From a virus (Duplodnaviria > Heunggongvirae > Uroviricota > Caudoviricetes), in IMG/VR virus record IMGVR_UViG_3300050821_006962, positions 27,133 through 91,132 of that record: a stretch of 64,000 nt of DNA. One strand, written 5' to 3'. Under the pieces are notes generated by a model. The model saw nothing but the letters and a program-made list of their open reading frames with translations, had not been told where the DNA came from and ran no database searches. Below, piece after piece: positions 2,920-61,704 of this stretch (positions within the stretch are counted from its first letter, which is position 1; each line of letters opens with the position of its first letter). Position numbers and translations under genes: made by a program.

Positions 2920-2920
2920 A

Positions 2921-3005
2921 TGGAGGAAGAGAACAGAATCGAACTGTCGTCCTTTCAGACGGTCGGGTGTTCGAAACCCGTTGCGAGCCATTCGCACTGT
3001 CTTCC
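2921..3005 (-). tRNA. tRNA-Ser(CGA)
   Basis: Type II; anticodon loop TTCGAAC; long variable arm ACCGTCTGAAAGGACG; CCA. Confidence 0.65.
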
Positions 3006-3010
3006 GTAAA

Positions 3011-3099
3011 TGGCGGACTGGTAGACGAATCGAACGCCCCCGTATCTCTACGAGCCTCCGGGTTCAAACCGGATTGCACACCGTTGCGCGGTACCATCC
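3011..3099 (-). tRNA. tRNA-Ser(UGA)
   Basis: Type II; anticodon stem TCCGG/CCGGA with loop TTTGAAC; long variable arm. Confidence 0.6.
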
Positions 3100-3106
3100 A
3101 TAAACT

Positions 3107-3194
3107 TGGCGGATGATGTGAGATTCGAACTCACTCGGGCTTTCACCCGCTGGTTTAGCAAACCAGTACGACACTCCGGCTTCGCCGACCATCC
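3107..3194 (-). tRNA. tRNA-Ser(GCU)
   Basis: Type II; anticodon loop TTGCTAA; T-arm GTGAG-TTCGAAT-CTCAC; acceptor GGATGGT/ATCATCC. Confidence 0.65.
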
Positions 3195-3200
3195 GTAAAC

Positions 3201-3617
3201 TTAAACTCCTAGCATCTTGCTGAGCTGCGCGACGCGCGACTTGGCTCTTTCCAAATCCCCGCTCGCTGCTTTGAATCCGTGATTCGGCTGAAACCCGTTC
3301 AGCCACTTGCACATCAGCTTGCCCCACAGCTTGCCTTCTTGCTGCGCGCGCCAGCTGTGCGTTGAAATCGTTTCGTCCTGCTGGCCTCGAAGAATCGTAA
3401 CATTGAACCAGATATCGAACGCGACCAGCGCTCGATGAGGCCAACCTTCTTTAGATGCCGTCAACTCTTGCGCCGCGACCTGCTGTGCCCCGGCCCACGG
3501 CACATACAGCCCGCGATATTTGTTAATTACACCAAATATGGTGGATACCGCAATCAAGCCGAGAACCGCACCGCTGAAAATTTCGCCAGTCAGCAACAGC
3601 TTATGAAGTGCGTCCAT
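3201..3617 (-). CDS. small membrane protein (N-terminal TM helix)
   Basis: 138 aa ORF inside the tRNA array; AAGAGG RBS 5 nt upstream of the ATG at 3617. Confidence 0.5.
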   Translation of the reverse strand: MDALHKLLLTGEIFSGAVLGLIAVSTIFGVINKYRGLYVPWAGAQQVAAQELTASKEGWPHRALVAFDIWFNVTILRGQQDETISTHSWRAQQEGKLWGKLMCKWLNGFQPNHGFKAASGDLERAKSRVAQLSKMLGV

Positions 3618-3633
3618 CGGAGCCTCTTAAATT

Positions 3634-3706
3634 GGCAGGAAGCGTAGGAGTCGAACCCACTCTCTCCGGGTTGGAGCCGGATGTGCTACCGCAACACTTG
3701 CAACCT
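3634..3706 (-). tRNA. tRNA-Trp(CCA)
   Basis: Anticodon stem TCCGG/CCGGA with loop CTCCAAC; D stem GTGT/GCAC; CCA; two U.U in the acceptor stem. Confidence 0.55.
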
Positions 3707-3769
3707 GTAGAAAATCTGAGCTTCCTATTTCACCGCGTGGCTGGCCGTGTCACAGCCCTTTGGACTCAC

Positions 3770-3880
3770 GTTGAAATCACCCGCTCCCAGTGGGATTCGA
3801 ACTCACACGCGGACACGATGGACGAATGCTGTCTAGGTCAGCACGTACGGACTAAGCCGCCTTCGTATCTACCTCGTACT
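3770..3880 (-). pseudogene. degenerate tRNA-like element
   Basis: T-arm-like GTGAG-TTCGAAT-CCCAC and an anticodon-like hairpin TGCTG-ACCTAGA-CAGCA (would read CUA), but no matching 5' acceptor strand and no CCA. Confidence 0.25.
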
Positions 3881-3951
3881 AGATGCGCCTTGCCGTTCGG
3901 CGTCATGGTCCCTCGCGTTTTTCAGGCGCGAGAGAAAAGAATGGTGGATGA

Positions 3952-4030
3952 TGAGGGATTCGAACTCTCTATGGCCCAAGGGCCAACAGGGTTACAGCCT
4001 GCCGCGCCACTCCAACTGCGCCGCTCATCC
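3952..4030 (-). tRNA. tRNA-Tyr(GUA)
   Basis: Anticodon loop CTGTAAC; long variable arm TGGCCCTTGGGCCAT; CCA. Confidence 0.65.
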
Positions 4031-4035
4031 AAACT

Positions 4036-4109
4036 TGGAGCCTCGTCGAGGAATCGGACCCCGGCGTCCTCTTTACGAAAGAGGCGTCATACCACTAGAC
4101 CAACAAGGC
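4036..4109 (-). tRNA. tRNA-Thr(CGU)
   Basis: Anticodon stem CCTCT/AGAGG with loop TTCGTAA; T-loop TCCGATT; CCA. Confidence 0.6.
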
Positions 4110-4115
4110 AAAAAT

Positions 4116-4191
4116 TGGAGCACCGCATTCGATTCGAACGAATGTGACCGAGGTACAAGCTCGGTATACTGGACCGCTGTATGAGCAGTGC
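4116..4191 (-). tRNA. tRNA-Thr(UGU)
   Basis: D stem ATAC/GTAT; anticodon loop CTTGTAC; T-arm ATTCG-TTCGAAT-CGAAT. Confidence 0.6.
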
Positions 4192-4192
4192 A

Positions 4193-4266
4193 TGGAGCCG
4201 AAGGCAGGAATCGGACCTGCGCTTGTTCTTTACCAAAGAACTGTTCTACCACTATACTACATCGAC
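4193..4266 (-). tRNA. tRNA-Thr(GGU)
   Basis: Anticodon stem GTTCT/AGAAC with loop TTGGTAA; T-arm GCAGG-TCCGATT-CCTGC. Confidence 0.6.
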
Positions 4267-4275
4267 TCAGAAAAT

Positions 4276-4350
4276 TGGAGCGAAGTGCGGGAAGTCGAAC
4301 CCGCGCCTAGACGTTGGCAACGTCTCGTGCTACCATTATACCAACCTCGC
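4276..4350 (-). tRNA. tRNA-Gly(GCC)
   Basis: Anticodon stem AGACG/CGTCT with loop TTGCCAA; CCA. Confidence 0.6.
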
Positions 4351-4358
4351 CCTGAAAC

Positions 4359-4432
4359 TGGAGCGGCGTCACGGACTCGAACCGAGACGAAGAGTTTGGA
4401 AAACTCCAATGCTACCATTACATCAACACCGC
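4359..4432 (-). tRNA. tRNA-Gly(UCC)
   Basis: Anticodon stem GGAGT/ACTCT with loop TTTCCAA; D arm ATGT-AATGGTA-GCAT. Confidence 0.6.
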
Positions 4433-4440
4433 TCAAAACT

Positions 4441-4529
4441 TGGTTGCGCAGAAGGGATTCGAACCCTTGGTGTCCTTTCGGATTCCAGCTTATGAGACTG
4501 GCGACATCGGCCATCTAGTCGACCGCGCA
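4441..4529 (-). tRNA. tRNA-Met/Ile2(CAU) with a 16-nt variable arm
   Basis: Anticodon loop CTCATAA matches elongator Met; acceptor TGCGCGG/CTGCGCA; unusual 16-nt variable region AATCCGAAAGGACACC. Confidence 0.5.
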
Positions 4530-4538
4530 ACAGAAAAA

Positions 4539-4612
4539 TGGTTGACGAGGAGTGAATCGAACACTCTCTTATTCCTTATCAGAGAATCGTCCTGCCGTTA
4601 GACGACTCGTCA
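4539..4612 (-). tRNA. tRNA-Ile(GAU)
   Basis: Perfect acceptor TGACGAG/CTCGTCA; anticodon loop CTGATAA; T-arm GAGTG-TTCGATT-CACTC. Confidence 0.65.
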
Positions 4613-4621
4613 ACTGAAAAT

Positions 4622-4698
4622 TGGTGGACCATAAGGGACTCGAACCCTCATTATTCCTCGGTGCAAGCGAGGTGCCATCCCAATTAGGCGAACGGCCC
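4622..4698 (-). tRNA. tRNA-Ala(UGC)
   Basis: Anticodon stem CCTCG/CGAGG with loop CTTGCAC; the G3.U70 Ala identity pair is present. Confidence 0.65.
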
Positions 4699-4708
4699 AC
4701 AGTAAAAT

Positions 4709-4784
4709 TGGTACTCGCGGCGGGATTTCAACCCGCGTTCTCGCCTTGAAAGGGCGGCGTCCTAGAGCACTAGACGACATGAGC
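4709..4784 (-). tRNA. tRNA-Glu(UUC)
   Basis: Body closely resembles E. coli tRNA-Glu (TC-GTCTAG...CTAGGAC, GCCGCCCTTTCAAGGCG); T-loop TTGAAAT. Confidence 0.6.
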
Positions 4785-4854
4785 ACTGAAACTTCTTGCC
4801 GCCTCCTGTTATCCCGGCCCCTTTCGGACCCCGGGTTTCCTGAACGGCAAAACT

Positions 4855-4928
4855 TGGTAGCGATGGCGAGAATCGAACTCGCGCTACTTGGTTGAGAACC
4901 AAGCGACCTGCCACTAATCGACAACGCC
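4855..4928 (-). tRNA. tRNA-Glu(CUC) (tentative)
   Basis: Anticodon stem CTTGG/CCAAG with loop TTCTCAA; T-arm GCGAG-TTCGATT-CTCGC; CCA. Confidence 0.5.
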
Positions 4929-4930
4929 AT

Positions 4931-5005
4931 TGGTGCCTCGTGGTGGAATCGGACCACCGTCTCAAGTTTATAAGACTTGGGCCTTCGCCATTAGACGAAC
5001 GAGGA
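4931..5005 (-). tRNA. tRNA-Ile(UAU) (tentative)
   Basis: Anticodon stem CAAGT/ACTTG with loop CTTATAA; T-arm GGTGG-TCCGATT-CCACC. Confidence 0.5.
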
Positions 5006-5013
5006 ATAGAAAT

Positions 5014-5089
5014 TGGTACCCAATCAGAGAATCGAACTCTGCCAGCCTCTTTGTAGGAGAGGTTCATACGACCAGTTTGATAATCGGGT
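5014..5089 (-). tRNA. tRNA-Val(UAC)
   Basis: Anticodon stem CCTCT/AGAGG with loop CCTACAA; acceptor ACCCGAT/ATTGGGT. Confidence 0.55.
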
Positions 5090-5171
5090 AGAAAATTTGG
5101 TGACAGTATTGTGTACCGGGGGAATCACCGTGCCCGCCTCTTGCGTTTTTGCTATCGGCTGAGACTGCCGT

Positions 5172-5339
5172 TTATAAATTCGTTTTGTACCAACGCTGGC
5201 CCATCGAAGACCACTGATAAACAATCTTGCAATCTTCGCACTTCACGACAGTCTCGCGGTCGGGTTGAACTTTACCCTCGACATACTTTCCGCACTGACA
5301 CATCAGACCTACAGACCGTGATGTTTTGTGAAGGCTCAT
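5172..5339 (-). CDS. small Zn-ribbon protein (55 aa, CxC...CxxC)
   Basis: MSLHKTSRSVGLMCQCGKYVEG...KCEDCKIVYQW; shares CxCGK...YQW with the ORF at 6041-6181. Confidence 0.35.
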   Translation of the reverse strand: MSLHKTSRSVGLMCQCGKYVEGKVQPDRETVVKCEDCKIVYQWSSMGQRWYKTNL

Positions 5340-5344
5340 AAACT

Positions 5345-5420
5345 TGGTGCATCGCCGGGGACTTGAACCCCGACCTCAGCGCTTAAAAGGCGCGCCATCT
5401 GCCGCTCGATATCGCAATGC
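5345..5420 (-). tRNA. tRNA-Lys(UUU)
   Basis: Anticodon loop CTTTTAA; T-arm CGGGG-TTCAAGT-CCCCG; CCA. Confidence 0.6.
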
Positions 5421-5430
5421 ACTGAAAATT

Positions 5431-5506
5431 TGGTCGACCGCCTCGGACTTGAACCGAGACCGTGTTCCTTAAGAGGGAATCATTCTGCCACTCGAAATCG
5501 CAGTCG
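5431..5506 (-). tRNA. tRNA-Lys(CUU)
   Basis: Anticodon loop CTCTTAA; T-arm CTCGG-TTCAAGT-CCGAG; acceptor CGACTGC/GCGGTCG. Confidence 0.6.
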
Positions 5507-5514
5507 ACTGAATT

Positions 5515-5586
5515 TGGTTGCGCGATAGCCCGGGTTCTGTCTAGGACGAACATTCCTCTGAGCCAGCTACCCGACCTTCATCACGC
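5515..5586 (-). pseudogene. short tRNA-like element (no canonical T-loop)
   Basis: Good acceptor pairing GCGTGAT/ATCGCGC plus ACCA, but only 69 nt and no TTCGA loop. Confidence 0.25.
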
Positions 5587-5869
5587 TCAACAAGCGCTCC
5601 GGTCCTATTTGCTGTTGCATCCGTGTGGAGTGCCTTCGCTTGAATGACTCAGGTATCTACGCTAACATTTCTGCTGCTCTCGCTGAGTACGAAGCCTTAC
5701 CCGTCCGCTTACGCGGCCCGCAACTTCCACGGCACGATGTTGAGTTATGCCCGGAACTTCCTCCAGCGCTTGCGCGCCAGCGTTCGTCTACGCTACCAAA
5801 AAGTAGGCAGTCTTTCGTTGACGCCAGAACGATTCGGCATTTGTGTCTGAACTGTTTCGCCGACAAACT

Positions 5870-5944
5870 TGGAGAACCGGGTCAGAGTCAAACTGACCAA
5901 TAGCGGGTTTGCAATCCGCCGCCTAATCGATTGGCTTCCGATTC
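5870..5944 (-). tRNA. tRNA-Cys(GCA)
   Basis: Anticodon arm GCGGATTGCAAACCCGC, near-identical to the E. coli Cys arm; discriminator U; CCA. Confidence 0.65.
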
Positions 5945-5949
5945 AAACT

Positions 5950-6035
5950 TGGTGCGCGTCGAGGGAGTCGGACCCTCACACCCAAAGGGGTAGCGCGTTT
6001 TAAGTGCGCCGCGTATGCCATTCCGCCACACGCGC
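5950..6035 (-). tRNA. tRNA-Leu(UAA)
   Basis: Type II; anticodon loop CTTAAAA; T-arm GAGGG-TCCGACT-CCCTC; acceptor GCGCGTG/GACGCGC. Confidence 0.65.
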
Positions 6036-6040
6036 AAAGC

Positions 6041-6181
6041 TTACTTGATGACCTCTAGCCACTGATAGCGAGTTCCGCAAGAGCAAGACGCCCAAACTTT
6101 TCTCATGCGATAGCCTGAGATAAATTTCTTGATTCGTCTCTTTACTCGATTAAATTTTTTACCACAAACGCAGGTCATCAT
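6041..6181 (-). CDS. small Zn-ribbon protein (46 aa), paralog of 5172-5339
   Basis: MMTCVCGKKFNRVKRRIKKF...SCSCGTRYQW; internal start of the 97-aa ORF-track entry, whose longer version would overlap tRNAs. Confidence 0.4.
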   Translation of the reverse strand: MMTCVCGKKFNRVKRRIKKFISGYRMRKVWASCSCGTRYQWLEVIK

Positions 6182-6187
6182 AAAACT

Positions 6188-6271
6188 TGGTCGCCCACCA
6201 CGGAGTCGAACCGTGACGCCCGAAGGCACGGGGTTTTGAATCCCGCGCGTCTGCCAGTTCCGCCAGCAGGC
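6188..6271 (-). tRNA. tRNA-Leu(CAA)
   Basis: Type II; anticodon loop TTCAAAA; variable arm TGCCTTCGGGCGT; T-arm CACGG-TTCGACT-CCGTG. Confidence 0.65.
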
Positions 6272-6279
6272 GATAAAAC

Positions 6280-6355
6280 TTGGAGGGCCACCGGGGAGTC
6301 GAACCCCGCTCCTAGCGTTCGTAGCGCTATGCAATTTCCGATATACGAGCAGCCC
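6280..6355 (-). tRNA. tRNA-Arg(ACG)
   Basis: Anticodon stem TAGCG/CGCTA with loop CTACGAA; T-arm CGGGG-TTCGACT-CCCCG. Confidence 0.65.
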
Positions 6356-6445
6356 TCAGAAATCGGAATCGTGTTTGCTCTGAACCACAGAGATTACCGC
6401 GCCTTGCAGCCGAAGCTGGCGAAGGACTTGACGCGACACAAATAT

Positions 6446-6523
6446 TGGAACACTCGGAGAGATTCGAACTCTCTTTGGTACGGGTTAGAACGCCGTTGGG
6501 ATATCCAGTTTCCCGACGAGTGC
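6446..6523 (-). tRNA. tRNA-Arg(UCU)
   Basis: D arm GGGA-AACTGGATA-TCCC; anticodon TTCTAA; T-arm GAGAG-TTCGAAT-CTCTC. Confidence 0.6.
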
Positions 6524-6669
6524 TCAGAAATTTTCGGGGTGCTGACGTGCCCTTAGACCGGAACCTTTTACGCGGGTCCGCACGGAGTGTGTCGCGAATC
6601 ACTTACGCGCTGGCTTAGGCAAGAAGACAGTACTCGTCCGTTCTCTGGCTCACGGAAGCCTTTGCAAAT

Positions 6670-6783
6670 TTACAGCGCGATGATTCGCGCGATGATTGGA
6701 TACTTACGGCAAACCCACAGCAGCACAAAAGGCGCTGCGGATGTGAACGAGACCGCAATCAGATACTTCTCGAAGAAGGTCAT
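6670..6783 (-). CDS. 37-aa hydrophobic membrane peptide
   Basis: GGGAGG RBS 5 nt upstream of the ATG at 6783; MTFFEKYLIAVSFTSAAPFVLLWVCRKYPIIARIIAL. Confidence 0.4.
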   Translation of the reverse strand: MTFFEKYLIAVSFTSAAPFVLLWVCRKYPIIARIIAL

Positions 6784-6844
6784 GAGAACCTCCCTTCTTA
6801 AATTTGGGCCGAGATTACAGCTCGACCCGCTCTACATGCAAACT

Positions 6845-6929
6845 TGGTACCCCGCACAGGAGTCGAACCTGCACGACCGAAGTCACTGGTTCCTAAGACC
6901 AGCGCGTCTCCCAATTCCGCCAACAGGGC
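6845..6929 (-). tRNA. tRNA-Leu(UAG)
   Basis: Type II; anticodon stem CTGGT/ACCAG with loop CTTAGGA; variable arm TGACTTCGGTCGT. Confidence 0.6.
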
Positions 6930-6930
6930 A

Positions 6931-7020
6931 CTGAAAATCTGCCGAGCGTTCTACCATTAAACTACGTGCGAGCAAGCTCACACGGCGGGACTCGAACCCG
7001 CACCTCTCAGCTCATCTGCC
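6931..7020 (-). other. tRNA 3' half followed by a tRNA 5' half (permuted order) joined by a perfect acceptor hairpin
   Basis: Minus RNA reads ...CUGAG-AGGU-GCGGG-UUCGAGU-CCCGC-CGUGUGA-G-CUUGC-UCGCACG-UA-GUUU-AAUGGUAG-AAC-G-CUCGG-CAGAUUUUCAG. The acceptor strands CGUGUGA/UCGCACG pair 7/7; GGCAGAU is duplicated in both halves. Confidence 0.4.
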
Positions 7021-7030
7021 ACCCGAACAA

Positions 7031-7360
7031 ATTGGTGGACTTAATTTCCGGGCGGATTTTATCAGCGCGAGCCGCCGTCCCGCATAGGGCACCTTTAGTG
7101 CCGAGTCCTATTGCCCCAAACCAGCATGCGAGGCCCCGTCAGGGAGCTACCCCGATAGGTTGATGGACTCTGTCGCGACAACATCTCCGTGGTAGGCGTG
7201 CCTTGACGCCTCGTTCCCCTTCGCACTTTCGTGCTCCGGTGTCCGTTCGCTCCCTAGAGAGCCGCGACCTCGCGCGCCCGAAGGCTACAGCCCCGAAGGG
7301 CCTGCGCTGTCCGCGACCCTGCAAGGGTCCGTAGTGGATAACCGAACGGCTCCACAAAAT
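7031..7360 (-). ncRNA. 330-nt GC-rich structured non-coding segment ending ...GUCCACCA
   Basis: No credible ORF; at least 6 perfect hairpins (GGCAC-CTTTA-GTGCC, GACCCT-GCA-AGGGTC, GGCGT-GCCTT-GACGCC, CCCGAAGGG x2, palindrome TGTCGCGACA); sits inside the tRNA operon. Confidence 0.35.
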
Positions 7361-7439
7361 TGGTCGAGAAAGCTGGATTCGAACCAGCGTGCCCTCGCTT
7401 CCGAAGCGAGTGAGATAAGCCAAACTCCTCTATTTCTCG
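7361..7439 (-). tRNA. tRNA-Pro(CGG)
   Basis: Perfect acceptor CGAGAAA/TTTCTCG; anticodon stem CTCGC/GCGAG with loop TTCGGAA; T-arm GCTGG-TTCGAAT-CCAGC. Confidence 0.6.
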
Positions 7440-7449
7440 ACAGTAAAAT

Positions 7450-7537
7450 TGGCTGGGGCAACAGGACTCGAACCTGTAATGAGCGCTAGCTCTGCCTGAT
7501 TAACAGTCAGGTGCTGTACCAATTGAGCCACACCCCA
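7450..7537 (-). tRNA. tRNA-Asn(GUU) with a 17-nt variable arm
   Basis: Anticodon arm CCTGA-CTGTTAA-TCAGG is identical to the E. coli Asn loop; extra hairpin CAGAGCTAGCGCTCATT in the variable region; discriminator G. Confidence 0.5.
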
Positions 7538-7546
7538 GTAGAAAAA

Positions 7547-7621
7547 TGGCGGAGATAACGGGAATCGAACCCGTACTTCATCCGTGACAGGGACGTGTCG
7601 TTACCAACTGACCCTATCTCC
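7547..7621 (-). tRNA. tRNA-Asp(GUC)
   Basis: Perfect acceptor GGAGATA/TATCTCC; anticodon loop CTGTCAC; T-arm ACGGG-TTCGATT-CCCGT. Confidence 0.65.
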
Positions 7622-7630
7622 GCTGAAAAA

Positions 7631-7719
7631 TGGTCGAGATAGAAGGATTCGAACCTCCGGGGCGTTGCCGCACTGGTTTCCAAAACCAGACCGCTACCAA
7701 GCTACGGACCTATACCTCG
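7631..7719 (-). tRNA. tRNA-Pro(UGG) with an expanded D region and a 14-nt variable arm
   Basis: Aligns with E. coli Pro(UGG) (AGCTTGGTAGCG, CTGGT-TTTGGAA-ACCAG, GGAGG-TTCGAAT-CCTTC) but carries insertions. Confidence 0.45.
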
Positions 7720-7833
7720 ACAGAAAATGTATACATCGTAGCAAACGTTTCGAACCGGACGCTTTCGCCACAACGGCAGGCCACGCAATGTAGCCTATGG
7801 TGTTTCACCCTTACGGATGACTTTGACATAGAC

Positions 7834-8031
7834 TCAGCCCACGCTTCTCGCCGAATTAGGCTCGCGAACCTGTAGCGTCTTTTCGGCAATCAGCAAGTAA
7901 ACTTTCGCGCTTTCCTCGACGTCGCCACTTAAGGCTAGGTGGACTATCTGCACGGTACTGACCCGTCGCTGGGCCAAGAAAATTATTGGTTCATTCATAA
8001 GTCGGAAAGCCAGTCGCAGCGGATGCGCCAT
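7834..8031 (-). CDS. hypothetical protein (65 aa)
   Basis: ORF track only; weak RBS. Confidence 0.25.
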   Translation of the reverse strand: MAHPLRLAFRLMNEPIIFLAQRRVSTVQIVHLALSGDVEESAKVYLLIAEKTLQVREPNSARSVG

Positions 8032-8053
8032 ACATTACCGTCCCAGTGCCCCG

Positions 8054-8125
8054 GGAGCTGGTGGGAGTCGAACCCACTCTGCCGCTTTGGTGGACTGTGA
8101 ACCAGCCGACCGCCCCGTGTTCATC
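8054..8125 (-). other. tRNA-like 3' element resembling a tmRNA 3' end (no full cloverleaf)
   Basis: GUGGG-UUCGACU-CCCAC-CAGCUCC, compared with E. coli ssrA GCGGG-UUCAACU-CCCGC-CAGCUCC-ACCA. Only about 40 nt upstream is pairable and no CCA is encoded. Confidence 0.3.
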
Positions 8126-8157
8126 ATGCGGTGATGAGCCGCCCACGGTTTGAACTC

Positions 8158-8349
8158 TTAAACCTTTCTGTGCTCGATTGGCGTGAGGTCTAACGTCGTC
8201 TCCGCGCCGCACTCGCAAACATATCTGTTGCCGGGTCGTCTCCGAACCGGGTCCCCGCATTCGGGGCATGAAATCAGCCGGGGTGGTTGCCCGACTCCGT
8301 TCTTCGCCGGAATCCATATTTCCGTTTCGAACGTTTCCATTGAACCCAT
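8158..8349 (-). CDS. Zn-ribbon protein (CPECG...CECG)
   Basis: ...LISCPECGDPVRRRPGNRYVCECGAETTLD; ATG at 8349 or 8340 lies inside or just after the -10 box of promoter 8348-8376, so it is possibly leaderless. Confidence 0.5.
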   Translation of the reverse strand: MGSMETFETEIWIPAKNGVGQPPRLISCPECGDPVRRRPGNRYVCECGAETTLDLTPIEHRKV

Positions 8350-8376
8350 CCTACCACACTTTCGAAACCTTGTCAA
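8348..8376 (-). promoter_or_regulatory. sigma70-like promoter (TTGACA-17-TAGGAT)
   Basis: Minus strand TTGACA (8371-8376), 17-nt spacer, TAGGAT (8348-8353). Confidence 0.5.
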
Positions 8377-8464
8377 GCTTTATTTTCGGGGCAGCTTTGG
8401 CTCGTGCTAGCTGCCCCTTGGAGGTGCAACTAATGCAAGGTGATGCTACTGCGATTCGAGAACC

Positions 8465-8493
8465 AGTCTAGCACAGTTCTCGAAACTTGTCAA
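8465..8493 (-). promoter_or_regulatory. sigma70-like promoter (TTGACA-17-TAGACT)
   Basis: Same architecture; the flanking sequence TTTCGAgAACtTGTCAAG is repeated from 8348-8376. Confidence 0.45.
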
Positions 8494-8508
8494 GTACTAT
8501 TTTAAACT

Positions 8509-8585
8509 TGGGGTGAAGTACGGGGGTCGAACCCGTGCCGAGGGATTCACAGTCCCCCGTGCTACCTTTACACTAACGACACCAC
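8509..8585 (-). tRNA. tRNA-His(GUG)
   Basis: Anticodon loop CTGTGAA; extra 5' G (G-1) opposite discriminator C73 as expected for His; T-arm ACGGG-TTCGACC-CCCGT. Confidence 0.6.
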
Positions 8586-23747: not shown

Positions 23748-24200
23748 GTGAAAGAAGAACAGAAAGAAAGGGCCAGAGCCAAACGCCTCTGGGATAACTA
23801 CAAGCTGACCATCGCGCAGTACGACGCAATCCTTGCGTATCAAGGCGGCGTTTGTTACGGCTGTCACCAAGCGGAGCCTGTAAAGGGTCGCCGTCTGTCT
23901 GTTGACCACGACCATGAGACGGGCGAGGTTCGCGGGCTGCTGTGTTCCCGCTGCAATCCGATTATCGGTAAGCTGGAGAACGCGTACAAGCGATACGGAC
24001 TCGGAAAGGTTACAGGTCTCACCGTGCTCATACTAGCCACTCGAATTGCGGAATATTTGCTGGTGCATCCGGCCAGCCGCGCGCTCGGCGCGCCGCATTT
24101 TGGATACCCGGGCCGGACGGGCACCAAGGCCCATCGAGCCCGCCTGCGACGTGAGAGGAAACTCACGACCCCAACCGCAGTTCCTTCACGAGGTAAATAA
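23748..24200 (+). CDS. endonuclease VII-like Holliday-junction resolvase (T4 gp49 family)
   Basis: CYGCHQ...LSVDHDHETGEVRGLLCSRCN matches the Endo VII Zn and catalytic motifs; GTG start. Confidence 0.6.
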   Translation: MKEEQKERARAKRLWDNYKLTIAQYDAILAYQGGVCYGCHQAEPVKGRRLSVDHDHETGEVRGLLCSRCNPIIGKLENAYKRYGLGKVTGLTVLILATRIAEYLLVHPASRALGAPHFGYPGRTGTKAHRARLRRERKLTTPTAVPSRGK

Positions 24201-29010: not shown

Positions 29011-29360
29011 TGCAAACCCTGATTCGATTTAACGGGCACGTCAATCACAAGGGACGCGGAGACGGTCTCCCTGAGACTATCTACGCGTTCCGAGTTTTGC
29101 AAGACCCTGATGCGGAACTCATAAACAAGGTTATTGAGCACCAGATTAACACTTTTACGAGCAGACAGATGATGTTTGTTCAACGGAACCAGAACGAGAT
29201 GGTTGATTTGTATTCGAATCTCACAAGTCAAATGGCCGTCCCGTTTCACAATCTGGCCTGCATCGACACAGACGTGATACCAATGGTGGGCGAACTGAGC
29301 ACCGCAGATGAAAGCGGTAAGGAACTTCTACCGAACGGCGAGGAGCCAGTGAAGCAATGA
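29010..29360 (+). CDS. hypothetical protein
   Basis: ORF track. Confidence 0.45.
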   Translation: MQTLIRFNGHVNHKGRGDGLPETIYAFRVLQDPDAELINKVIEHQINTFTSRQMMFVQRNQNEMVDLYSNLTSQMAVPFHNLACIDTDVIPMVGELSTADESGKELLPNGEEPVKQ

Positions 29361-30079
29361 TAGTCCTCGGTTTCGATTTGGAGAGCACTGGCCTCGATAA
29401 GGTTAATGACCGCCCAATCGAGGCCGCGATGGCGCTATGGACCACGAAGTTCAACCGCAGCTTGGACACGCGGGCCATTCTCATTCAGTCGGACGGTGTC
29501 AAAGTCACCGATGAGATTACCGAGATTACGGGAATCAACCAGAGCATGGTCGACAAGTTCGGCTACACGCCGGAAGAAGCTTACGACGAGATGATGTACT
29601 TCGTGGAGCGCGCGGAGGCCTTGGTCGCCTTCAACGGCAAGCGCTTCGATGTGCCGATGTGCCAGCAGTGGGCGAAGCGGCTCGGCAAGCAATTCCCAGA
29701 CAAGCTCGTCATTGACCCGTTCACGGACCTCCCGATGCGCGGTCAAGAGCAGATTACGATGTGCGCCAAGATGGGCTTCTGCTACGATGCGCACGAGGCC
29801 GGGGCGGACGTTGGCGCGATGCTCCGCTTGATGGGCAAGTTTGACTTCAATATTGTCTTGACAAGAGCGCAGAGTCCTGTTATAGTAGTACGCTCACTTC
29901 AAGGCCGCAACGAGAACGACAAAGCAAAGAAACACAAGTTTCGCTGGAACCCCGACCGTAAAATTTGGTGGAAGGCCATCAAGCAGATGGACGTGGACGA
30001 GCTTGCTAAAGCAGTCAACGGGGAATTCAGGATGGAAATTCTAGACCTCCAACCGGAGGATTTGGAAGACCCGCAGTAA
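29357..30079 (+). CDS. DnaQ-like DEDD 3'-5' exonuclease
   Basis: Exo I GFDLESTGL; Exo III YDAHEAGADV. Confidence 0.6.
   Translation: MIVLGFDLESTGLDKVNDRPIEAAMALWTTKFNRSLDTRAILIQSDGVKVTDEITEITGINQSMVDKFGYTPEEAYDEMMYFVERAEALVAFNGKRFDVPMCQQWAKRLGKQFPDKLVIDPFTDLPMRGQEQITMCAKMGFCYDAHEAGADVGAMLRLMGKFDFNIVLTRAQSPVIVVRSLQGRNENDKAKKHKFRWNPDRKIWWKAIKQMDVDELAKAVNGEFRMEILDLQPEDLEDPQ
29858..29886 (+). promoter_or_regulatory. internal sigma70-like promoter (TTGACA-17-TATAGT)
   Basis: Lies inside the exonuclease gene; would drive the gene at 30111. Confidence 0.4.
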
Positions 30080-30837: not shown

Positions 30838-32880
30838 ATGAGTTTTTTAGATATAGCTAAGCCATTAGCTTTGATGGGCGTCCCGATGACGCCCGTGCGA
30901 CCGGGCACAAAGAGAGCCTTCCTTCCGGACTTCCCCACGACTGCGACCACCGACCTTGCGCAAATAACTGCGTGGGATATTCAACATCCGGACTGTAATG
31001 CTGCGTGCGTCGCTCGTGCGGAGCAAGGCGGAGTCTGGTTCTTCGAGGTTGACTCGCCGGATGTAATCCCCCGCTTGGAGAAGCAGACGGGGCAGACAAT
31101 GCCGAACACCTTTAAGGTGCGCAGCCGTCCCGGGCGCGGCCACTTTTATTTCCGTCACACGCCGCGCTCGATGGCGATGGGCAACATTTCACAGACGTAT
31201 GTTATCGGGCAAGATTGGTCTGTTCGCACGAATCGCGAGTATGTCGTCGCTCCCGGGAGTATCCATCCGGAAACGAAGCAGCCGTATACCGCGCTCAGCT
31301 GGGATACGCCGATTGTGGAAGCTCCCGATTGGCTCATCGATTGGCTGCTCGACCAAAAAATTCAAAAGACGGCTACTATCACAGGGAAGACAGAAGCGCC
31401 GCGTAATGAGCGCGGGTTAGTGCCGCACGGAAGCATTCACGGCTACCTTCTTACGGAAGCCGGACGCCTCCGCAACATGGGGCTGGGTGAAGAGGCCATC
31501 CGTGTCGCGCTTCGCGAACTGGTAGAGAAGAACTGCCAGCCGCCCATCGACTGGAACAAAGTTGATGCGATGGCGAAGTCCATCTGCAACTTTCCCGCAG
31601 GCGAGAATACAACTCTCGTCATGAATCAGGTCCCGACTCAGACAGCGGCAGAAGAGCCGGAAGAAGAGCTGAGCTTTGAGACCATCGAATATCCGGTGTT
31701 CCCGCATTGGGTCATGGAGGGCACCAGCATCTACGAAGGCTTCGCGAAGCCGTACTGCGATAAGAATTCGCGCATCGATTACTTCATGTGGGCACCCGCC
31801 GCCGCAATGATGATGAATTACCTCGGCACCAAGGTTACCGTGCCGTACTCATCGTGGAAGCCGAGCTTTTACATCGTGCTCATCGGCAAGCGCGGCAGCA
31901 CCAACAAGTCGTCTTCGATGAAAGATGGAATGCGCTATCTCGAACTCGCGAACGTGCTCACTCACTACTCGAAGGGGCTGAAGAATTCGGACGGCAAGGC
32001 GGTCGTGTGGGAGGCCGGGTCAGCAGAGGGCCTTGGCACCGACATGATGCGCATCAACTGCACGGGCGTCATTCTGTTCTACGACGAACTCTCGGCGCTC
32101 ATCTCCAAGGCCCGCATCGAGAACAGCAGCCTTTATAGCGCGATGCTAAAGATGTACGAGTCCGCGCCATTCTCCAACTCCGTGAAGTCGAAGAGAGACG
32201 CGTTCGACATCAAGGAGGGAAGCTACTGCGCGACGCTTATCACCGCAACGACAGATAAAAAATTCATGGAGCTGTGGTCTCAACTCGCCGGGGAAGACAC
32301 CGGGCTGAACGACCGCTTCACGTGGATATTAGAGCCAAGAGAGCTGCCGAAGAAGAGACTGGAGCACGTCGTCAACTATGCGGAAGCCGCCCTCGTGACT
32401 CGGAAGCTTATCGATAAGGCCGTTGAGAAGCGCACCTACCAGTTCTTCGACAAGACCCCGCTGATGAAGACGCTGGAGATGTACGACAACCGAGCCGCAG
32501 GTCGCGCGGAGAAGTGGGCGCTCTATTTCGCTATCGACTTGGGCCTGCCCGAGATTGATGAAGACTGCGTGGAGCGCGGCATCGAGATGGTGAAGTACGA
32601 GTATGCGGTGAAGGACTATCTGGAGGTCTTCGAGGCCAAGAACGACGAGTCTGCGATTCAGCAAGGCACGCTTCGGCTGCTCCGCAAAAATGGCGGCGTG
32701 ATGGAGAAGAATACCCTGATTCGCGCGCTGAATTATAACAAGTACGGGCTCTCGGTCTGGAACAAGGCGTACTACCAACTGGTCAACTGCGGTTTCGTTG
32801 TCGAGGAGGGCAAGGGCTGCAAAGGCAGCCCGAAGATGGTTCGCATGATTCGCGATATGAAGGGCGGCGAGGATGATTGA
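30838..32880 (+). CDS. bifunctional primase-polymerase (Prim-Pol) / P4-D5-type helicase
   Basis: N-terminal Prim-Pol-like region; Walker A GKRGSTNKSS. Confidence 0.6.
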   Translation: MSFLDIAKPLALMGVPMTPVRPGTKRAFLPDFPTTATTDLAQITAWDIQHPDCNAACVARAEQGGVWFFEVDSPDVIPRLEKQTGQTMPNTFKVRSRPGRGHFYFRHTPRSMAMGNISQTYVIGQDWSVRTNREYVVAPGSIHPETKQPYTALSWDTPIVEAPDWLIDWLLDQKIQKTATITGKTEAPRNERGLVPHGSIHGYLLTEAGRLRNMGLGEEAIRVALRELVEKNCQPPIDWNKVDAMAKSICNFPAGENTTLVMNQVPTQTAAEEPEEELSFETIEYPVFPHWVMEGTSIYEGFAKPYCDKNSRIDYFMWAPAAAMMMNYLGTKVTVPYSSWKPSFYIVLIGKRGSTNKSSSMKDGMRYLELANVLTHYSKGLKNSDGKAVVWEAGSAEGLGTDMMRINCTGVILFYDELSALISKARIENSSLYSAMLKMYESAPFSNSVKSKRDAFDIKEGSYCATLITATTDKKFMELWSQLAGEDTGLNDRFTWILEPRELPKKRLEHVVNYAEAALVTRKLIDKAVEKRTYQFFDKTPLMKTLEMYDNRAAGRAEKWALYFAIDLGLPEIDEDCVERGIEMVKYEYAVKDYLEVFEAKNDESAIQQGTLRLLRKNGGVMEKNTLIRALNYNKYGLSVWNKAYYQLVNCGFVVEEGKGCKGSPKMVRMIRDMKGGEDD

Positions 32881-34102
32881 GTGTCTCATAGACTACGAAT
32901 CGCGCTCTCCGGTTGCGCCTTCCGACGTAGGACTGCACAATTATATCTTTCACCCGGAGACCGAGCCTCTGTTTCTCTGGTACAACATCGACAACATCGG
33001 GTACGAGTGCTGGCGCATCTGGGAAGATGACGCCTTCAAAGCTCGCGATTGGAAGAACATTTGCGTTCCTCAAGCTCTGGATGAGGCGATGCACGACCCC
33101 GAGGTTCGCTTCGTTGCTTTCAACTCAGGCTTCGAGAGATATATGAATCGCAAACTCGGCTGGGAGGTTCCGGCCAGCCGTTTCATCGACCCGCAGGTCG
33201 GCGGTCGCTATCTATCTCTTCCCGCAAGCTTGGAAGTGCAAGCCGATGTTCTTGGGCTGCCTCCGAGTCTCACCAAGGACAAACGCGGCGGCGAACTGAT
33301 TAAACTTTTCTCCGAGAAGGTTATCAAGAAGGCCACGAAGAAAAATCCCGCGCAAGAATATTACAACGACTGGAACAGTCACCCGAAAGAGTGGCAGGAG
33401 TTCCTCGATTACGGCAAGCAGGACGTGGTCGCGGAAGGCGAGTTGCTTCGCAGAATGCGAATTCTCCGTGCGCTCCCTCTTCCTCCGTTCGAGCAGCGCC
33501 TCTGGCTCTTTGACCAGAAGGTGAACGACCGAGGCATGCCCGTCGACCTCAATTTCGTAAAGAAGATGTACGCGCTCGCCATCCGCGCCAAGAAGGAAGC
33601 GAAAGAGGCGTTCGAGAAGATGACAGGCGTGTTGAACGCCAACTCGCCCGCGCAGATTAAGAAGTGGGCCGCAACCCAAGGCTACCCGTACCCATCGCTC
33701 GGCAAGGATGTTGTCGCGTCCGCGCTGAAGGACCCCAATTTGAAACTCACAGAGCTTTGCCGCACTGCGCTCAATATGCGCGCCGAAGCCGCGAGCACCA
33801 GCTACCAGAAGCTCCGCAAAATTCTACTGGCGGTCTCGCCGGACGGCATGCTTCGAAACCAATTTATCTTCATGGGTTCTAGCCGCTGCGGTCGCTGGTC
33901 CGGGAACGCGGTCCAGCTCCACAATATGGCGCGCCCGCTGCCGCCGAACAAGCTGAACGGCTATGACTTCGAAAAGCAAAGCGTTGTGAGAGAAGCTCGC
34001 GCGATGATTTACGCGGAAGACTACGATGGAATCAAGGCCAAGTATGGTAGCGTGCTTCTCGTTGTGAAGAGTCTGATTCGCACGGTGTTCGTGGCACCAT
34101 GA
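32873..34102 (+). CDS. DNA polymerase I family A, N-terminal piece (exo, thumb and pre-motif A)
   Basis: ...FIFMGSSRCGRWSGNAVQLHNM corresponds to RLSSSDPNLQNIP; stops just before motif A. Confidence 0.6.
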   Translation: MIECLIDYESRSPVAPSDVGLHNYIFHPETEPLFLWYNIDNIGYECWRIWEDDAFKARDWKNICVPQALDEAMHDPEVRFVAFNSGFERYMNRKLGWEVPASRFIDPQVGGRYLSLPASLEVQADVLGLPPSLTKDKRGGELIKLFSEKVIKKATKKNPAQEYYNDWNSHPKEWQEFLDYGKQDVVAEGELLRRMRILRALPLPPFEQRLWLFDQKVNDRGMPVDLNFVKKMYALAIRAKKEAKEAFEKMTGVLNANSPAQIKKWAATQGYPYPSLGKDVVASALKDPNLKLTELCRTALNMRAEAASTSYQKLRKILLAVSPDGMLRNQFIFMGSSRCGRWSGNAVQLHNMARPLPPNKLNGYDFEKQSVVREARAMIYAEDYDGIKAKYGSVLLVVKSLIRTVFVAP

Positions 34103-34260
34103 ACGAAATCGTCTACATCGGATGGAAGTGCAACGAGATTCTGATTTACTGGAACGGCGAATATTGGCGCTGGACTCGTTCACCTATGACAAAAGATGAC
34201 CCGCCCCATGTGTTTGAGAAGTTGACCGATGAGTACAAAGAGGGATGGAACCTGCGATGA
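34099..34260 (+). CDS. 53-codon ORF inserted between the polymerase pieces
   Basis: ATGA overlaps at both junctions; MNEIVYIGWKCNEILIYWNGEYWRWTRSPMTKDDPPHVFEKLTDEYKEGWNLR. Confidence 0.4.
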   Translation: MNEIVYIGWKCNEILIYWNGEYWRWTRSPMTKDDPPHVFEKLTDEYKEGWNLR

Positions 34261-35372
34261 GCACACGACTGAACGTTTGCGATTTGAACGCCATAGAAAC
34301 CCGAGTGGGGGGTTGGCTCGCGGGCTGCACCGACTTGATGAACGTGTTCATACCGTACACAGACGCGAAGGGAAATTTCTGGCGCAACGGTCGGGACCCG
34401 TACATCGCGTTCGCGGCGAAGATGTACGGTACGACCTACGAGGCTCTTTGGAACGACTACATCGGGCTGAACGGCCCGGAGCGCAAGGCGGAAGCAAAGA
34501 GGAAGCGCCAGATTGCGAAGCCGGGTGTGCTCGGCGCTATCTATCGTCTGTCCGGCGGCCTTCTCATGTACGTGTTCAAGTGTACCTGTCGCAAGACCGA
34601 ATGGTACGCGCAAGCGGCGACCGCGCAGTGCGGCAACTGCGGAGCAGTGTGTGAACCGCAGTACACGAAGAAGACCGGGCTGTGGGATTACGCGGACAAG
34701 ATGGGCGTCGAGATGTCGCAGGAGCAGGCGCACGAGGTGGTGCGAATTTTCCGCGACTCGTATCCGGAAATCTGTGACCCGAAGGTCGGCATCTGGAAGC
34801 AGCTAGAGGTCGCGGTCGCAGACGTCATGCATCCGCACCACCCGCAGACGGTTCGCACCATCGGCCCGGGCGGCTGCGTTGTAATCGACCGCATCAATTT
34901 CATCGACTCGCAAGGAAACGAAGAGCGCAAGCCGATGATGCGCATGCGGCTGCCGAGCGGTCGCTACTTACACTACTTGGATGCACGGCTCGAATCGACC
35001 AAGATGCCGTGGAAGGGACAGGACGAAGATGGAGAAGAAATTGATGTCTACCGAGACAGCCTCATTTATGCCGGAACCAACCAGAAGACCAAGCAGTGGG
35101 ACGTTTGGGTCTCAACACACGGCGGTAAACTGTTCGAAAACTTGGTGCAAGGAATTGCCCGAGACATCTTGGCCGTCAAGCTTCTTGAGTTTGAAGAGCG
35201 AGAGCTTCCCGTTGTCGGACACGTACATGACGAGGGAATCTGTCTTGTGGAGAATGATATCTTATCGCCTACTGTACACGATATGGTCGAGATAATGAGC
35301 AAGGAAGTCAGCTGGGCACCCGGATTACTTCTAGGAGCAGACGGATATGAAGACCCCTATTATCACAAATGA
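34257..35372 (+). CDS. DNA polymerase I family A, C-terminal piece (motifs A, B, C)
   Basis: Motif A DLNAIETRV; motif B RQIAKPGVLGAIYRLSGG; motif C VGHVHDEGI. Confidence 0.65.
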   Translation: MSTRLNVCDLNAIETRVGGWLAGCTDLMNVFIPYTDAKGNFWRNGRDPYIAFAAKMYGTTYEALWNDYIGLNGPERKAEAKRKRQIAKPGVLGAIYRLSGGLLMYVFKCTCRKTEWYAQAATAQCGNCGAVCEPQYTKKTGLWDYADKMGVEMSQEQAHEVVRIFRDSYPEICDPKVGIWKQLEVAVADVMHPHHPQTVRTIGPGGCVVIDRINFIDSQGNEERKPMMRMRLPSGRYLHYLDARLESTKMPWKGQDEDGEEIDVYRDSLIYAGTNQKTKQWDVWVSTHGGKLFENLVQGIARDILAVKLLEFEERELPVVGHVHDEGICLVENDILSPTVHDMVEIMSKEVSWAPGLLLGADGYEDPYYHK

Positions 35373-60154: not shown

Positions 60155-60400
60155 ATGAGCGTGGCACAAGATTTGTTTCTCGGTCTGGTCGGCTCGGTCG
60201 AAGCAGGCATCTTGACACCAGAAGAGGCGGTGACCGAACTCGCCGAGTTGAAGCAGGAGTACGGTTTCTATTCGGAGTACACGCTCGAAGACTTCCAACG
60301 GCTTCGAACAAATTATCTCTCCAAGCTGGAATCGGAGGAAGATAACGATTATTACGAAGACGATTTCAGATACGACGAGGATGAAGAGGACGACGAATGA
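60155..60400 (+). CDS. acidic small protein
   Basis: AGGAGG RBS. Confidence 0.5.
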   Translation: MSVAQDLFLGLVGSVEAGILTPEEAVTELAELKQEYGFYSEYTLEDFQRLRTNYLSKLESEEDNDYYEDDFRYDEDEEDDE

Positions 60401-61704
60401 GCTTGCCAAACGAAAAGATGGTCGGGAAGAATTACAACGTGATTGTCCCTGAAACTGGTGTGCCAATCAAAATTTGGAACAAGCACGTTAAGGTTGAGGA
60501 ACAAGCAATTCAACAGCTGAAAGACGTGGCTTCTATGTCTTTTGTGAAGCCTTATGTCGCAGCAATGAGTGATTGCCACTGGGGTATGGGCGCGACGGTC
60601 GGCTCCGTTATCCCGACGGTGGGCGCTGTGATGCCCGCTGCGGTCGGCGTGGATATCGGCTGCGGGATGATGGCTGTCCGCACAAATCTCAAATGGCGAC
60701 AAGCAGCTCCCGAAGACGGAATTTTCGAGATATACGATTACAAGCGCATGTTCGAGGCAATCTCGAAGGCGGTACCGCACGGTCGCACCGACAACGGCGG
60801 CGCGAGAGATATCGGCGGCTGGGGTACGGTCCCGACTGACATCGCAGGAATATGGGAGAAAGAATTCGCCGCGCCTTACGATGAGCTTTGTCGGAAGCAC
60901 CCGGGCGCGTTATCGAAGAATGCGGAGCGCCATCTCGGCACACTCGGCACCGGGAACCACTTCATCGAGGTCTGCACCGAAATCGACAACCCGGACTCTA
61001 ACCTTTGGGTGGTCATCCACTCCGGCTCTCGCGGACTGGGCAATCGCATCGGCACATATTTCACCAAGCTGGCCGGAGACCTTTGCAAGACGTGGGGCGT
61101 CCAGCTCCCGAACAAGGACCTCGGGTATCTCCCGGTCGGCACCAGTCAGTACGACGATTACATCACGGCGATTACGCTGGCGCAGAAGTTTGCGTGGCAC
61201 AATCGCATCATCATGATGGAGCGCGTGCTGAAAGCTATCGGTGCAGAGCAGGATGGTAACGAGCAAATTGACGGCTTCAATGTCACTCCCTCGATTATCC
61301 ACATGCACCATAACTATATGACACAGATTTGCTTCGGCGGTCTTGACATCAACCTGACTCGCAAGGGCGCGGTCGACGCGAGCCACGGCAATTGGGTCAT
61401 CATCCCCGGTTCGATGGGCGCGAAGACCTACATCGCTCGCGGGCTGGGCAACAAGGAATCGTTCTGCTCTTGCTCCCACGGCGCAGGCCGCGCAATGAGC
61501 CGAACGCAGGCTTTGAAGACGTTCACGGTCGGGGACCACGAGGCGGCAACGGCAGGCGTGTACTGCGACAAGACACGCGCCGTGCTCGACGAAACGCCAG
61601 CCGCGTACAAAGACATCGATGCGGTGATGGAATCGCAGCGCGACCTAGTTGAGCCCGTTTTGAAAATCAAGCAGTTGGTATGTGTCAAAGGATTGAGCGA
61701 TTAA
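60397..61704 (+). CDS. rtcB: RtcB RNA 3'-phosphate/5'-OH ligase
   Basis: SHGAGRAMSR and His-rich metal-binding motifs; RtcB-like length. Confidence 0.65.
   Translation: MSLPNEKMVGKNYNVIVPETGVPIKIWNKHVKVEEQAIQQLKDVASMSFVKPYVAAMSDCHWGMGATVGSVIPTVGAVMPAAVGVDIGCGMMAVRTNLKWRQAAPEDGIFEIYDYKRMFEAISKAVPHGRTDNGGARDIGGWGTVPTDIAGIWEKEFAAPYDELCRKHPGALSKNAERHLGTLGTGNHFIEVCTEIDNPDSNLWVVIHSGSRGLGNRIGTYFTKLAGDLCKTWGVQLPNKDLGYLPVGTSQYDDYITAITLAQKFAWHNRIIMMERVLKAIGAEQDGNEQIDGFNVTPSIIHMHHNYMTQICFGGLDINLTRKGAVDASHGNWVIIPGSMGAKTYIARGLGNKESFCSCSHGAGRAMSRTQALKTFTVGDHEAATAGVYCDKTRAVLDETPAAYKDIDAVMESQRDLVEPVLKIKQLVCVKGLSD

Follow-up and report, generated by a model that had tools for sequence, protein, structure and literature searches.

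A phage family-A DNA polymerase gene in two pieces, with a small conserved reading frame at a probable homing-endonuclease hotspot

Why should a replicative DNA polymerase be made as two polypeptides, and what is a third reading frame doing between them? The question is posed by a polA locus (positions 30,838 to 35,372) in a 64,000-nucleotide (nt) stretch of Caudoviricetes DNA, referred to here as the window, which covers positions 27,133 to 91,132 of the IMG/VR record IMGVR_UViG_3300050821_006962. The gene for a family-A DNA polymerase (PolA) is distributed over two open reading frames (ORFs), which encode an N-terminal part (ORF1, N-half) and a C-terminal part (ORF3, C-half), and the small ORF2 lies in the gap. 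The original prediction, made from the sequence of the window, had described a naturally split polymerase with either a third small subunit or a selfish insert at the split site. The analysis of related loci identifies a novel case of the already known splitting of genes by selfish DNA, and we regard it as probable (about 70%) that this is a genes-in-pieces polymerase created at a hotspot of homing endonucleases, with ORF2 as surviving cargo.

Results

The ORF list and the sequence agree on three ORFs, each in a frame of its own, and on ATGA stop/start overlaps at both junctions (GCACCATGAACG at 34099 and CTGCGATGAGC at 34257; Table 1), as had been predicted. Both polymerase halves match PHROG 17 (DNA polymerase), ORF1 at profile positions 675 to 1003 (E value, 1.5e-41) and ORF3 at positions 1010 to 1231 (E value, 3.2e-34), and this contiguous coverage means that nothing is missing at the break. 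The family-A motifs A (D..xIExR), B (RxxAKxxxxGxxY), and C (HDE) follow each other in this order and are, in line with the original prediction, all located in ORF3, motif A at residues 9 to 17; aligned with the intact relatives, all three show no variation. The N-half comprises putative 3'-5' exonuclease motifs and the thumb and pre-motif-A region. Its motifs DYE(S), NSGFERY, and YGKQD are conserved or invariant in the clade, and their assignment to ExoI to ExoIII was made by eye. ORF1 had been thought to end after the pre-motif-A segment SSRCGRWSGNAVQLHNM; the segment is present (residues 336 to 352), but another 57 residues follow up to residue 409, and in a profile match the terminal ...LIRTVFVAP corresponds to IRRAFIAE of Klentaq.

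Single-gene polymerases with about 33% identity were found by tblastn among phage records, i.e., in BcepNazgul, the Xylella phages Sano, Salvo, and Bacata, Chi-like phages, SPO2, and phiFL4A, and ORF1 and ORF3 match neighboring stretches of one gene in these records. Searches of Pfam and NCBIfam gave no match for ORF1, ORF2, or ORF3 at an E value of ≤0.01, and single-sequence searches of ORF1 and ORF3 against Protein Data Bank sequences yielded noise only. The polymerase represents a divergent PolA subfamily. A profile built from the clade alignment matches Klentaq and Klenow across motif A only (IRRAFIAEEGWLLVALDYSQIELRV; E value, 1.7e-4); this match places the break at Taq E601/E602, equivalent to Klenow P696/E697, eight residues before the catalytic Asp (D610 and D705, respectively). 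The fused product of ORF1 and ORF3 is colinear with 15 intact metagenomic relatives, with zero residues gained or lost. At the junction, ...IRTVFVAP-PGK-RFNVCDLNAIETRV of the intact genes corresponds to ...IRTVFVAP* and then MST-RLNVCDLNAIETRV in the window, so that the sole change is x-G-K to M-S-T. With this colinearity and the recurrence of the break across relatives, the predicted natural split of a family-A polymerase, as opposed to a frameshift artifact, is borne out.

A second exonuclease-like gene is found beside the exonuclease motifs of the N-half, namely, a 240-amino-acid (aa) ORF upstream of the primase gene (29357 to 30079, plus strand) that matches PHROG 192 (DNA polymerase exonuclease subunit; E value, 1.7e-22). 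The C-half carries a Cys-rich insertion (KCTCRKTEWYAQAATAQCGNCGAVCEP), possibly a zinc ribbon, without a counterpart in most relatives, including L001 (our locus numbers are used here for single relatives); a different Cys-rich insert occupies this place in L058 and L068.

The split is a property of a large group of phage loci. More than 120 homologues of ORF1 (57 to 100% identity) are present in a large protein database, all of them about 400 to 430 aa long. A metagenome scan yielded 80 soil loci, and overall about 90 related loci were fetched, about 65 of them with a readable junction. Among the 80, every locus whose N-half is at least 54% identical to ORF1 has its break where the window has it, whereas about 18 loci of lower identity (44 to 53%) have one uninterrupted ORF. 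Intact genes, whose occurrence in related phages had been proposed as a check, are therefore available in these relatives and in phage and prophage PolA proteins of about 30% identity, which are also single ORFs. Including the window, 48 split contigs from many samples and sequencing projects were counted, i.e., the residue at which the window is split is also the break point in 47 other loci, in a gene that is contiguous in relatives. An NTGA is in register at the C-half start in 35 of these 48 loci, and seven more have an ATGA if an alignment offset of one base is allowed; the start codons are ATG, GTG, or TTG. A shared break with NTGA in about 42 of 48 independently assembled relatives is far above chance, and a whole clade has inherited the break.

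About 17 of the split loci have a bare stop/start overlap with zero insert, among them the closest relative, L003, whose halves are joined by an ATGA and are 86% (N-half) and 91% (C-half) identical to those of the window. The view that the polymerase was split by the 53-codon ORF could not be maintained, because the split predates ORF2 and exists without it in L003 and about 16 others. Ratios of nonsynonymous to synonymous substitution rates (dN/dS), calculated for the window versus L003, L005, and L007, range from 0.06 to 0.13 (0.08 to 0.10 for the N-half and 0.06 to 0.13 for the C-half), which shows that the polymerase gene is not a pseudogene. Together with the intact motifs, these values are indirect evidence that the halves may reassemble into an active enzyme. 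L035, a bare split, is 72 to 74% identical to intact genes and at most 60% to any other split gene; its position implies at least two transitions between the intact and the split state.

An extra T inside the motif A codons of the C-half of L045 (positions ~5393 to 5440; GATCTTTAACGCC versus GA-CTTGAACGCC) places the catalytic Asp out of frame; it is due to an assembly error or else marks a dead polymerase allele. The same split polA with 66% and 69% identity in the two halves, which lie in different frames about 12 nt apart, is present on a 57.7-kb contig named "uncultured archaeon isolate LFW-28" (CABMCB010000010.1; L090). We suspect that it is a mis-binned phage contig and may not be archaeal. 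A scan of genome collections, in which it was the sole close match, did not reveal a host, and neither ORF1 nor ORF2 had a close relative in scans of IMG/VR.

The inserts at the break vary from 148 nt to about 2.3 kb among the relatives; the cassettes are inserted at the same nucleotide and form NTGA overlaps with their neighbors. According to Pfam, ORFs in the gap encode Endonuclease_7 (PF02945) in L004, L005, L009, L010/12, L025/26, L044, L048/52, L075, L082, L083, L085, and L088, HNH_3 (PF13392) in L008, and GIY-YIG (PF01541) in L025/26. In nearly all Endonuclease_7-positive gap ORFs, the PF02945 motif is located C-terminally, behind a Cys-rich N-terminal region. The same layout has been described for F-CphI-type homing endonucleases, i.e., a C-terminal endonuclease VII catalytic motif and a Cys-rich N-terminal region (PMC6083498), and the likeness is one of layout. 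Recurrent small ORFs comprise the ORF2 family, a Cys/His-rich family of 51 to 78 aa, a 68-aa family starting with MAFTGFDEKDGEPLY, and a family of 82 to 85 aa. The largest gap, of about 2.26 kb (L083, positions 2677 to 4936), holds five ORFs between the polymerase halves, i.e., ORFs of 68 and 55 aa, an 89-aa ORF2 homologue, an ORF of 332 aa without a Pfam match, and a 163-aa Endonuclease_7 gene, and L001 has three ATGA-bounded cassettes in series.

Gap content turns over fast, as closely related pairs of loci show. The N-halves of L044, with an endonuclease VII gene in the gap, and L049, with a bare junction, are 95.7% identical, and L029 (bare) is a sister of L025, which carries a GIY-YIG, an ORF2-like, and an endonuclease VII gene. 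The 65-aa ORF of L011 (positions 5442 to 5639) is an internally deleted copy of the 161-aa endonuclease VII-type gene of L010 and L012, in which 17 residues remain at the N terminus and 28, all of them identical, at the C terminus, and the catalytic segment is gone; this deletion documents the decay of a nuclease gene in place. The earlier notion of a selfish insert at the split site thus came close to the truth, in that homing-endonuclease genes and cassettes with small ORFs share this site as an insertion hotspot. The gap of the window holds ORF2 alone, without a nuclease motif according to Pfam, PHROG, and NCBIfam, and gap nucleases are encoded in the relatives. The window is accordingly a nuclease-free descendant state and not a textbook genes-in-pieces member.

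The window has an endonuclease VII gene of its own 10 kb upstream of polA (23748 to 24200, plus strand), with a strong match to PF02945 (E value, 1.1e-20). The gap nuclease genes of the relatives match it weakly (30 to 36% identity), and unlike F-CphI, its catalytic domain is N-terminal and resolvase-like.

ORF2 belongs to a rare protein family. Nine close homologues were found, an alignment-based search retrieved 33 clusters among 5.8 billion, and a full scan with a hidden Markov model (HMM) found 11 representatives (at 50% identity) among 1.84 billion; the members are 42 to 116 aa long. Across 10 homologues of 70 to 92% identity, about 25 residues are invariant. ORF2 and its counterpart in L001 differ by 21 synonymous and 3 nonsynonymous changes over 46 codons, and in the family dN is 0.03 to 0.2 and dS is saturated. 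These patterns indicate strong purifying selection on ORF2, so its protein is presumably functional. An AlphaFold2 model predicts four β-strands with a predicted local distance difference test (pLDDT) score of 88.5, and a structural search with this fold found no significant neighbor. ORF2 has no domain match in Pfam, PHROG, or NCBIfam, its tblastn matches among phage records are due to chance (E value, ≥2), and it shows no similarity to the gap nuclease genes. A role of ORF2 as a homing endonuclease itself was rejected, since it has no HNH, GIY-YIG, LAGLIDADG, His-Cys, PD-(D/E)xK, or EDxHD motif and is, with 53 aa, too small; the idea that it is the DNA-binding tail of a truncated GIY-YIG enzyme, suggested by L025, found no supporting similarity.

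The close family members with known context are located in the polA gap (L001/2, L021, L023, L032, L045, and L083). An ORF2 family member shares the gap with an endonuclease VII-type gene in L004, L025/26, L082, L083, and L085, and in L082, L085, and L025/26 it stands directly upstream of this gene. In L045, an ORF2 that is 88% identical to that of the window is found in a polymerase gene whose N-half is only 50% identical, and it is followed by GGAGAAGCAGCGATGA, which equals the 3' end of the nuclease genes of L008, L010, L011, and L025 and looks like a nuclease-gene remnant. Two distant family members (P0151 and P0152) occur among small ORFs outside the polA gap.

The junctions would also offer a means of translating the C-half. 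A Shine-Dalgarno-like GAGGGA is encoded within the conserved C-terminal KEGW codons of ORF2 and would act as the ribosome-binding site of the C-half; bare-split relatives have no tract of this type at the C-half start. The in-frame alternative ATG of ORF3 at 34245 exists because the conserved Trp codon of ORF2 generates it as a by-product. No promoter-like or terminator-like sites were found in the gap. Further upstream, the stop of a Prim-Pol/helicase gene overlaps the start of ORF1 by 8 nt (ATGATTGA). This gene is the first in a chain of overlapping replication genes, and the order of Prim-Pol/helicase and polymerase genes is also present in L083, L085, and L088.

Table 1. Features of the split polA locus (positions within the window)
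Feature	Position	Strand	Description	Evidence
Prim-Pol/DUF3987 primase-helicase gene	30838-32880	+	upstream of ORF1	Pfam PF09250 (E value, 1.3e-21), DUF3987
ORF1 (PolA N-half)	32873-34102	+	409 aa, C terminus ...LIRTVFVAP	ORF list and sequence
Exonuclease-like motif IDYESRS	32888-32908	+	in ORF1	
Exonuclease-like motif NSGFERY	33122-33142	+	in ORF1	
Exonuclease-like motif YGKQDV	33410-33427	+	in ORF1	
ORF2	34099-34260	+	53 aa, rare family of small Trp-rich proteins (predicted β-sheet)	ORF list and sequence
ORF2 insertion	34099-34256	+	exactly 158 nt; starts with an ATGA and stops immediately ahead of the following ATGA	junction DNA alignment with bare-split L003 and L007
Shine-Dalgarno-like GAGGGA	34240-34245	+	11 nt before the C-half ATG	read from the sequence
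ORF3 (PolA C-half)	34257-35372	+	371 aa	ORF list and sequence
Motif A DLNAIETRV	34281-34307	+	catalytic Asp codon at 34281-34283	
Motif B RQIAKPGVLGAIY	34506-34544	+	in ORF3	
Cys-rich insertion KCTCRKTEWYAQAATAQCGNCGAVCEP	34578-34658	+	ORF3 residues 108-134, 3' of motif B	alignment with intact relatives
Motif C HVHDEG	35220-35237	+	in ORF3	

Discussion

According to the explanation that we favor, the window stems from an uncultured soil phage with a genome of about 90 to 100 kb that would make its PolA as two polypeptides. The N-half (exonuclease and thumb) and the C-half (palm with motif A, fingers, and palm with motif C) would assemble without a covalent link. The break, in a loop eight residues before the motif A Asp, may have served as a landing site for free-standing homing-endonuclease genes, mostly with the endonuclease VII motif but also of the HNH_3 and GIY-YIG types, with small ORFs traveling along. 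Cassettes would then have been gained, exchanged, decayed, and lost at the break, and their loss by deletion between the flanking ATGA repeats could have left a bare ATGA split. The ORF2 cassette may have entered with an endonuclease VII-type homing cassette and outlived the nuclease gene. ORF2 would be translated by termination-reinitiation after the N-half and hand on the ribosome, together with the GAGGGA tract, to the C-half.

Several points weigh against this explanation. The assembly of the halves and an operating translational coupling are deduced from sequence features, and the homing origin of the allele in the window, whose gap has no nuclease gene, is deduced from its relatives. The strong conservation of ORF2, whose predicted fold has no structural match, would be compatible with a function linked to the polymerase in those phages that possess it. 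The 88% identity of ORF2 in L045 at 50% polymerase identity could reflect extreme constraint rather than transfer, and as synonymous sites are saturated, a transfer cannot be dated. Distant ORF2 family members reside outside the gap, so the family does not occur solely with nuclease genes, and the tree of the relatives is a neighbor-joining tree without bootstrap support.

Genes in pieces that were generated by free-standing homing endonucleases are known from nrdA of Aeromonas phage Aeh1 (nrdA-a/mobE/nrdA-b) and from genes 39 and 60 of T4 with mobA (reviewed in PMC2988022, which cites Friedrich et al. 2007). As in the locus studied here, an essential contiguous gene is cut in a critical conserved region and both halves persist as ORFs of their own, the gap contains an HNH-type nuclease gene (here in the relatives), and the ORFs are connected by stop/start overlaps, e.g., UAAUGA at mobE. 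The present case differs in that a family-A polymerase is concerned, that the gap of the window holds a small conserved ORF and no nuclease gene, and that the split persists across a large clade with bare junctions and changing cassettes. A replicative DNA polymerase in two genes has been described for the Aeromonas phages 25 and 44RR, whose family-B gp43 is split into 43A and 43B; according to the review, the halves co-purify and are active, and the gap content varies as well, in that phage 25 has a seg endonuclease gene there and 44RR an untranslated spacer (PMC2988022). Unlike split gp43, the polA break concerns another polymerase family and another position, has NTGA overlaps instead of an untranslated spacer, and has attracted at least four families of small ORFs and three nuclease families.

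In the OM43 phages MEP401 and MEP402, the annotation likewise divides PolA between two genes, which flank a small ORF of unknown function, and a mobile-element origin has also been considered by the authors (PMC10580990). These phages represent an unrelated marine lineage; homology of their small ORF to ORF2 was not detected, and a search of the phage record collection gave no significant match for ORF2. A free-standing nuclease gene also separates the halves of fractured genes, whose parts carry split inteins and flank a homing endonuclease (Dassa et al. 2009, PMC2677866; PolB of MIJ3, PMC6892783). The present locus has no intein blocks, unlike these genes, and since the termini fit residue for residue, protein splicing cannot ligate its halves.

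Could the polymerase nevertheless be a single continuous polypeptide, restored by an intron, an intein, translational bypass, or two programmed -1 frameshifts? Precedents are provided by the group I introns in the polymerases of SPO1 and Bastille, the bypass in T4 gene 60, and split inteins (PMC2677866, PMC10580990), but for the locus studied here this is hardly credible. The termini of ORF1 and ORF3 match the intact relatives residue for residue, and because nothing is gained or lost at the break, a split intein is excluded; a fractured gene with an N-intein of about 100 aa and a C-intein of about 35 aa (HN plus nucleophile) was rejected, as neither terminus has extra sequence. An Rfam search of positions 33600 to 34800 found no family at an E value of ≤1, the RNA of the gap (221 nt) does not exceed shuffled sequences in folding stability (z = +1.18), and in many relatives the halves adjoin without any intervening base. 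Group I and group II introns were therefore discarded, the 158-nt insert being fully coding, and the absence of both intein and intron agrees with what had been noted originally. A bypass in the manner of T4 gene 60 was likewise dismissed, because no matching, suitably framed take-off and landing codons were seen on reading the sequence and all of the gap is coding sequence. No slippery heptamer was seen by reading at GCACCATGA, and a start codon overlapping the TGA is always kept at the C-half position whatever precedes it, which is needed for reinitiation but not for frameshifting and hence favors the former. Equally remote is the notion of a sequencing or assembly artifact, or of a dead pseudogene in a phage that is replicated by another polymerase. 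The window is, to be sure, a metagenome assembly, and a relative (L045) has a 1-nt indel inside motif A, but the same break is found in all 48 contigs, an artifact would need two independent compensating frame changes that each create an ATGA, and both halves combine the low dN/dS values with a full set of intact catalytic motifs.

More serious is the question of whether ORF2 is a genuine third subunit or an assembly factor that bridges or stabilizes the polymerase halves in the phages that carry it. Its position exactly between the halves, with overlaps on both sides that would favor stoichiometric coproduction, the strong purifying selection, the compact and confidently predicted fold, and the location of most family members with known context in the polA gap would fit such a role. 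We nevertheless consider it unlikely, since L003 and about 16 other split relatives lack any insert, many others have unrelated small ORFs or nuclease genes in place of ORF2, distant family members are found outside the gap, and the polymerase termini have an identical layout with or without ORF2. ORF2 is thus not an obligatory subunit, given that many split relatives do without it, and it seems to be dispensable for the polymerase; the required third subunit of the original prediction loses its basis with the bare ATGA junctions. The opposite assumption, namely, that ORF2 is what remains, without function, of a decayed homing endonuclease or another insert, has in its favor the decaying nuclease genes of the gap (the internal deletion in L011 and the 3' remnant in L045) and the lack of a recognizable domain in ORF2. 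It is even less plausible than a subunit in view of the preponderance of synonymous changes relative to L001, the number of invariant residues, the dissimilarity to the gap nuclease genes, and the confident fold prediction. Surviving cargo of a homing-endonuclease hotspot hence remains our preferred explanation for ORF2. As a tentative and rather speculative extension of it, the polA break might function as an integron-like cassette site within an essential gene, where NTGA-bounded small ORFs and nuclease genes are stacked and translationally coupled in relay, and ORF2 might be, instead of passive cargo, a dedicated partner or antagonist of endonuclease VII-type homing enzymes, e.g., an anti-homing or target-protecting protein.

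Few essential phage enzymes are known to withstand being cut in two by selfish DNA, and with this locus a family-A replicative polymerase joins them. The position at which the cut is tolerated is resolved to the residue, eight before the motif A Asp, which is useful for the engineering of split polymerases. Taken together, the related loci form an unusually complete natural series of the life cycle of a homing-endonuclease invasion, comprising intact genes, nuclease-invaded genes, decaying nucleases, gaps with a small ORF only, and bare splits. They also draw attention to a rare and strongly conserved family of proteins of 45 to 55 aa that travels with gap nuclease genes.

Other features of the window

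A match to the bacterial RNase P RNA of class A (RF00010) is located on the minus strand at positions 5510 to 5799 (290 nt), inside a tRNA cluster (2502 to 8582) with about 20 tRNA genes around it. It scores 102 bits versus a gathering score of 100 (E value, ~5e-32) and spans the full model, and the core elements GAGGAA..UCCGGGC and ACAGAACCCGG are aligned. A full-text literature search did not bring up an obvious description of an RNase P RNA encoded by a phage. The window also encodes an RtcB-type tRNA/RNA ligase (60397 to 61704, plus strand; PHROG 1075; E value, 5.7e-126), and its combination with the tRNA cluster and the RNase P RNA suggests a phage-borne toolkit for tRNA maturation and repair.

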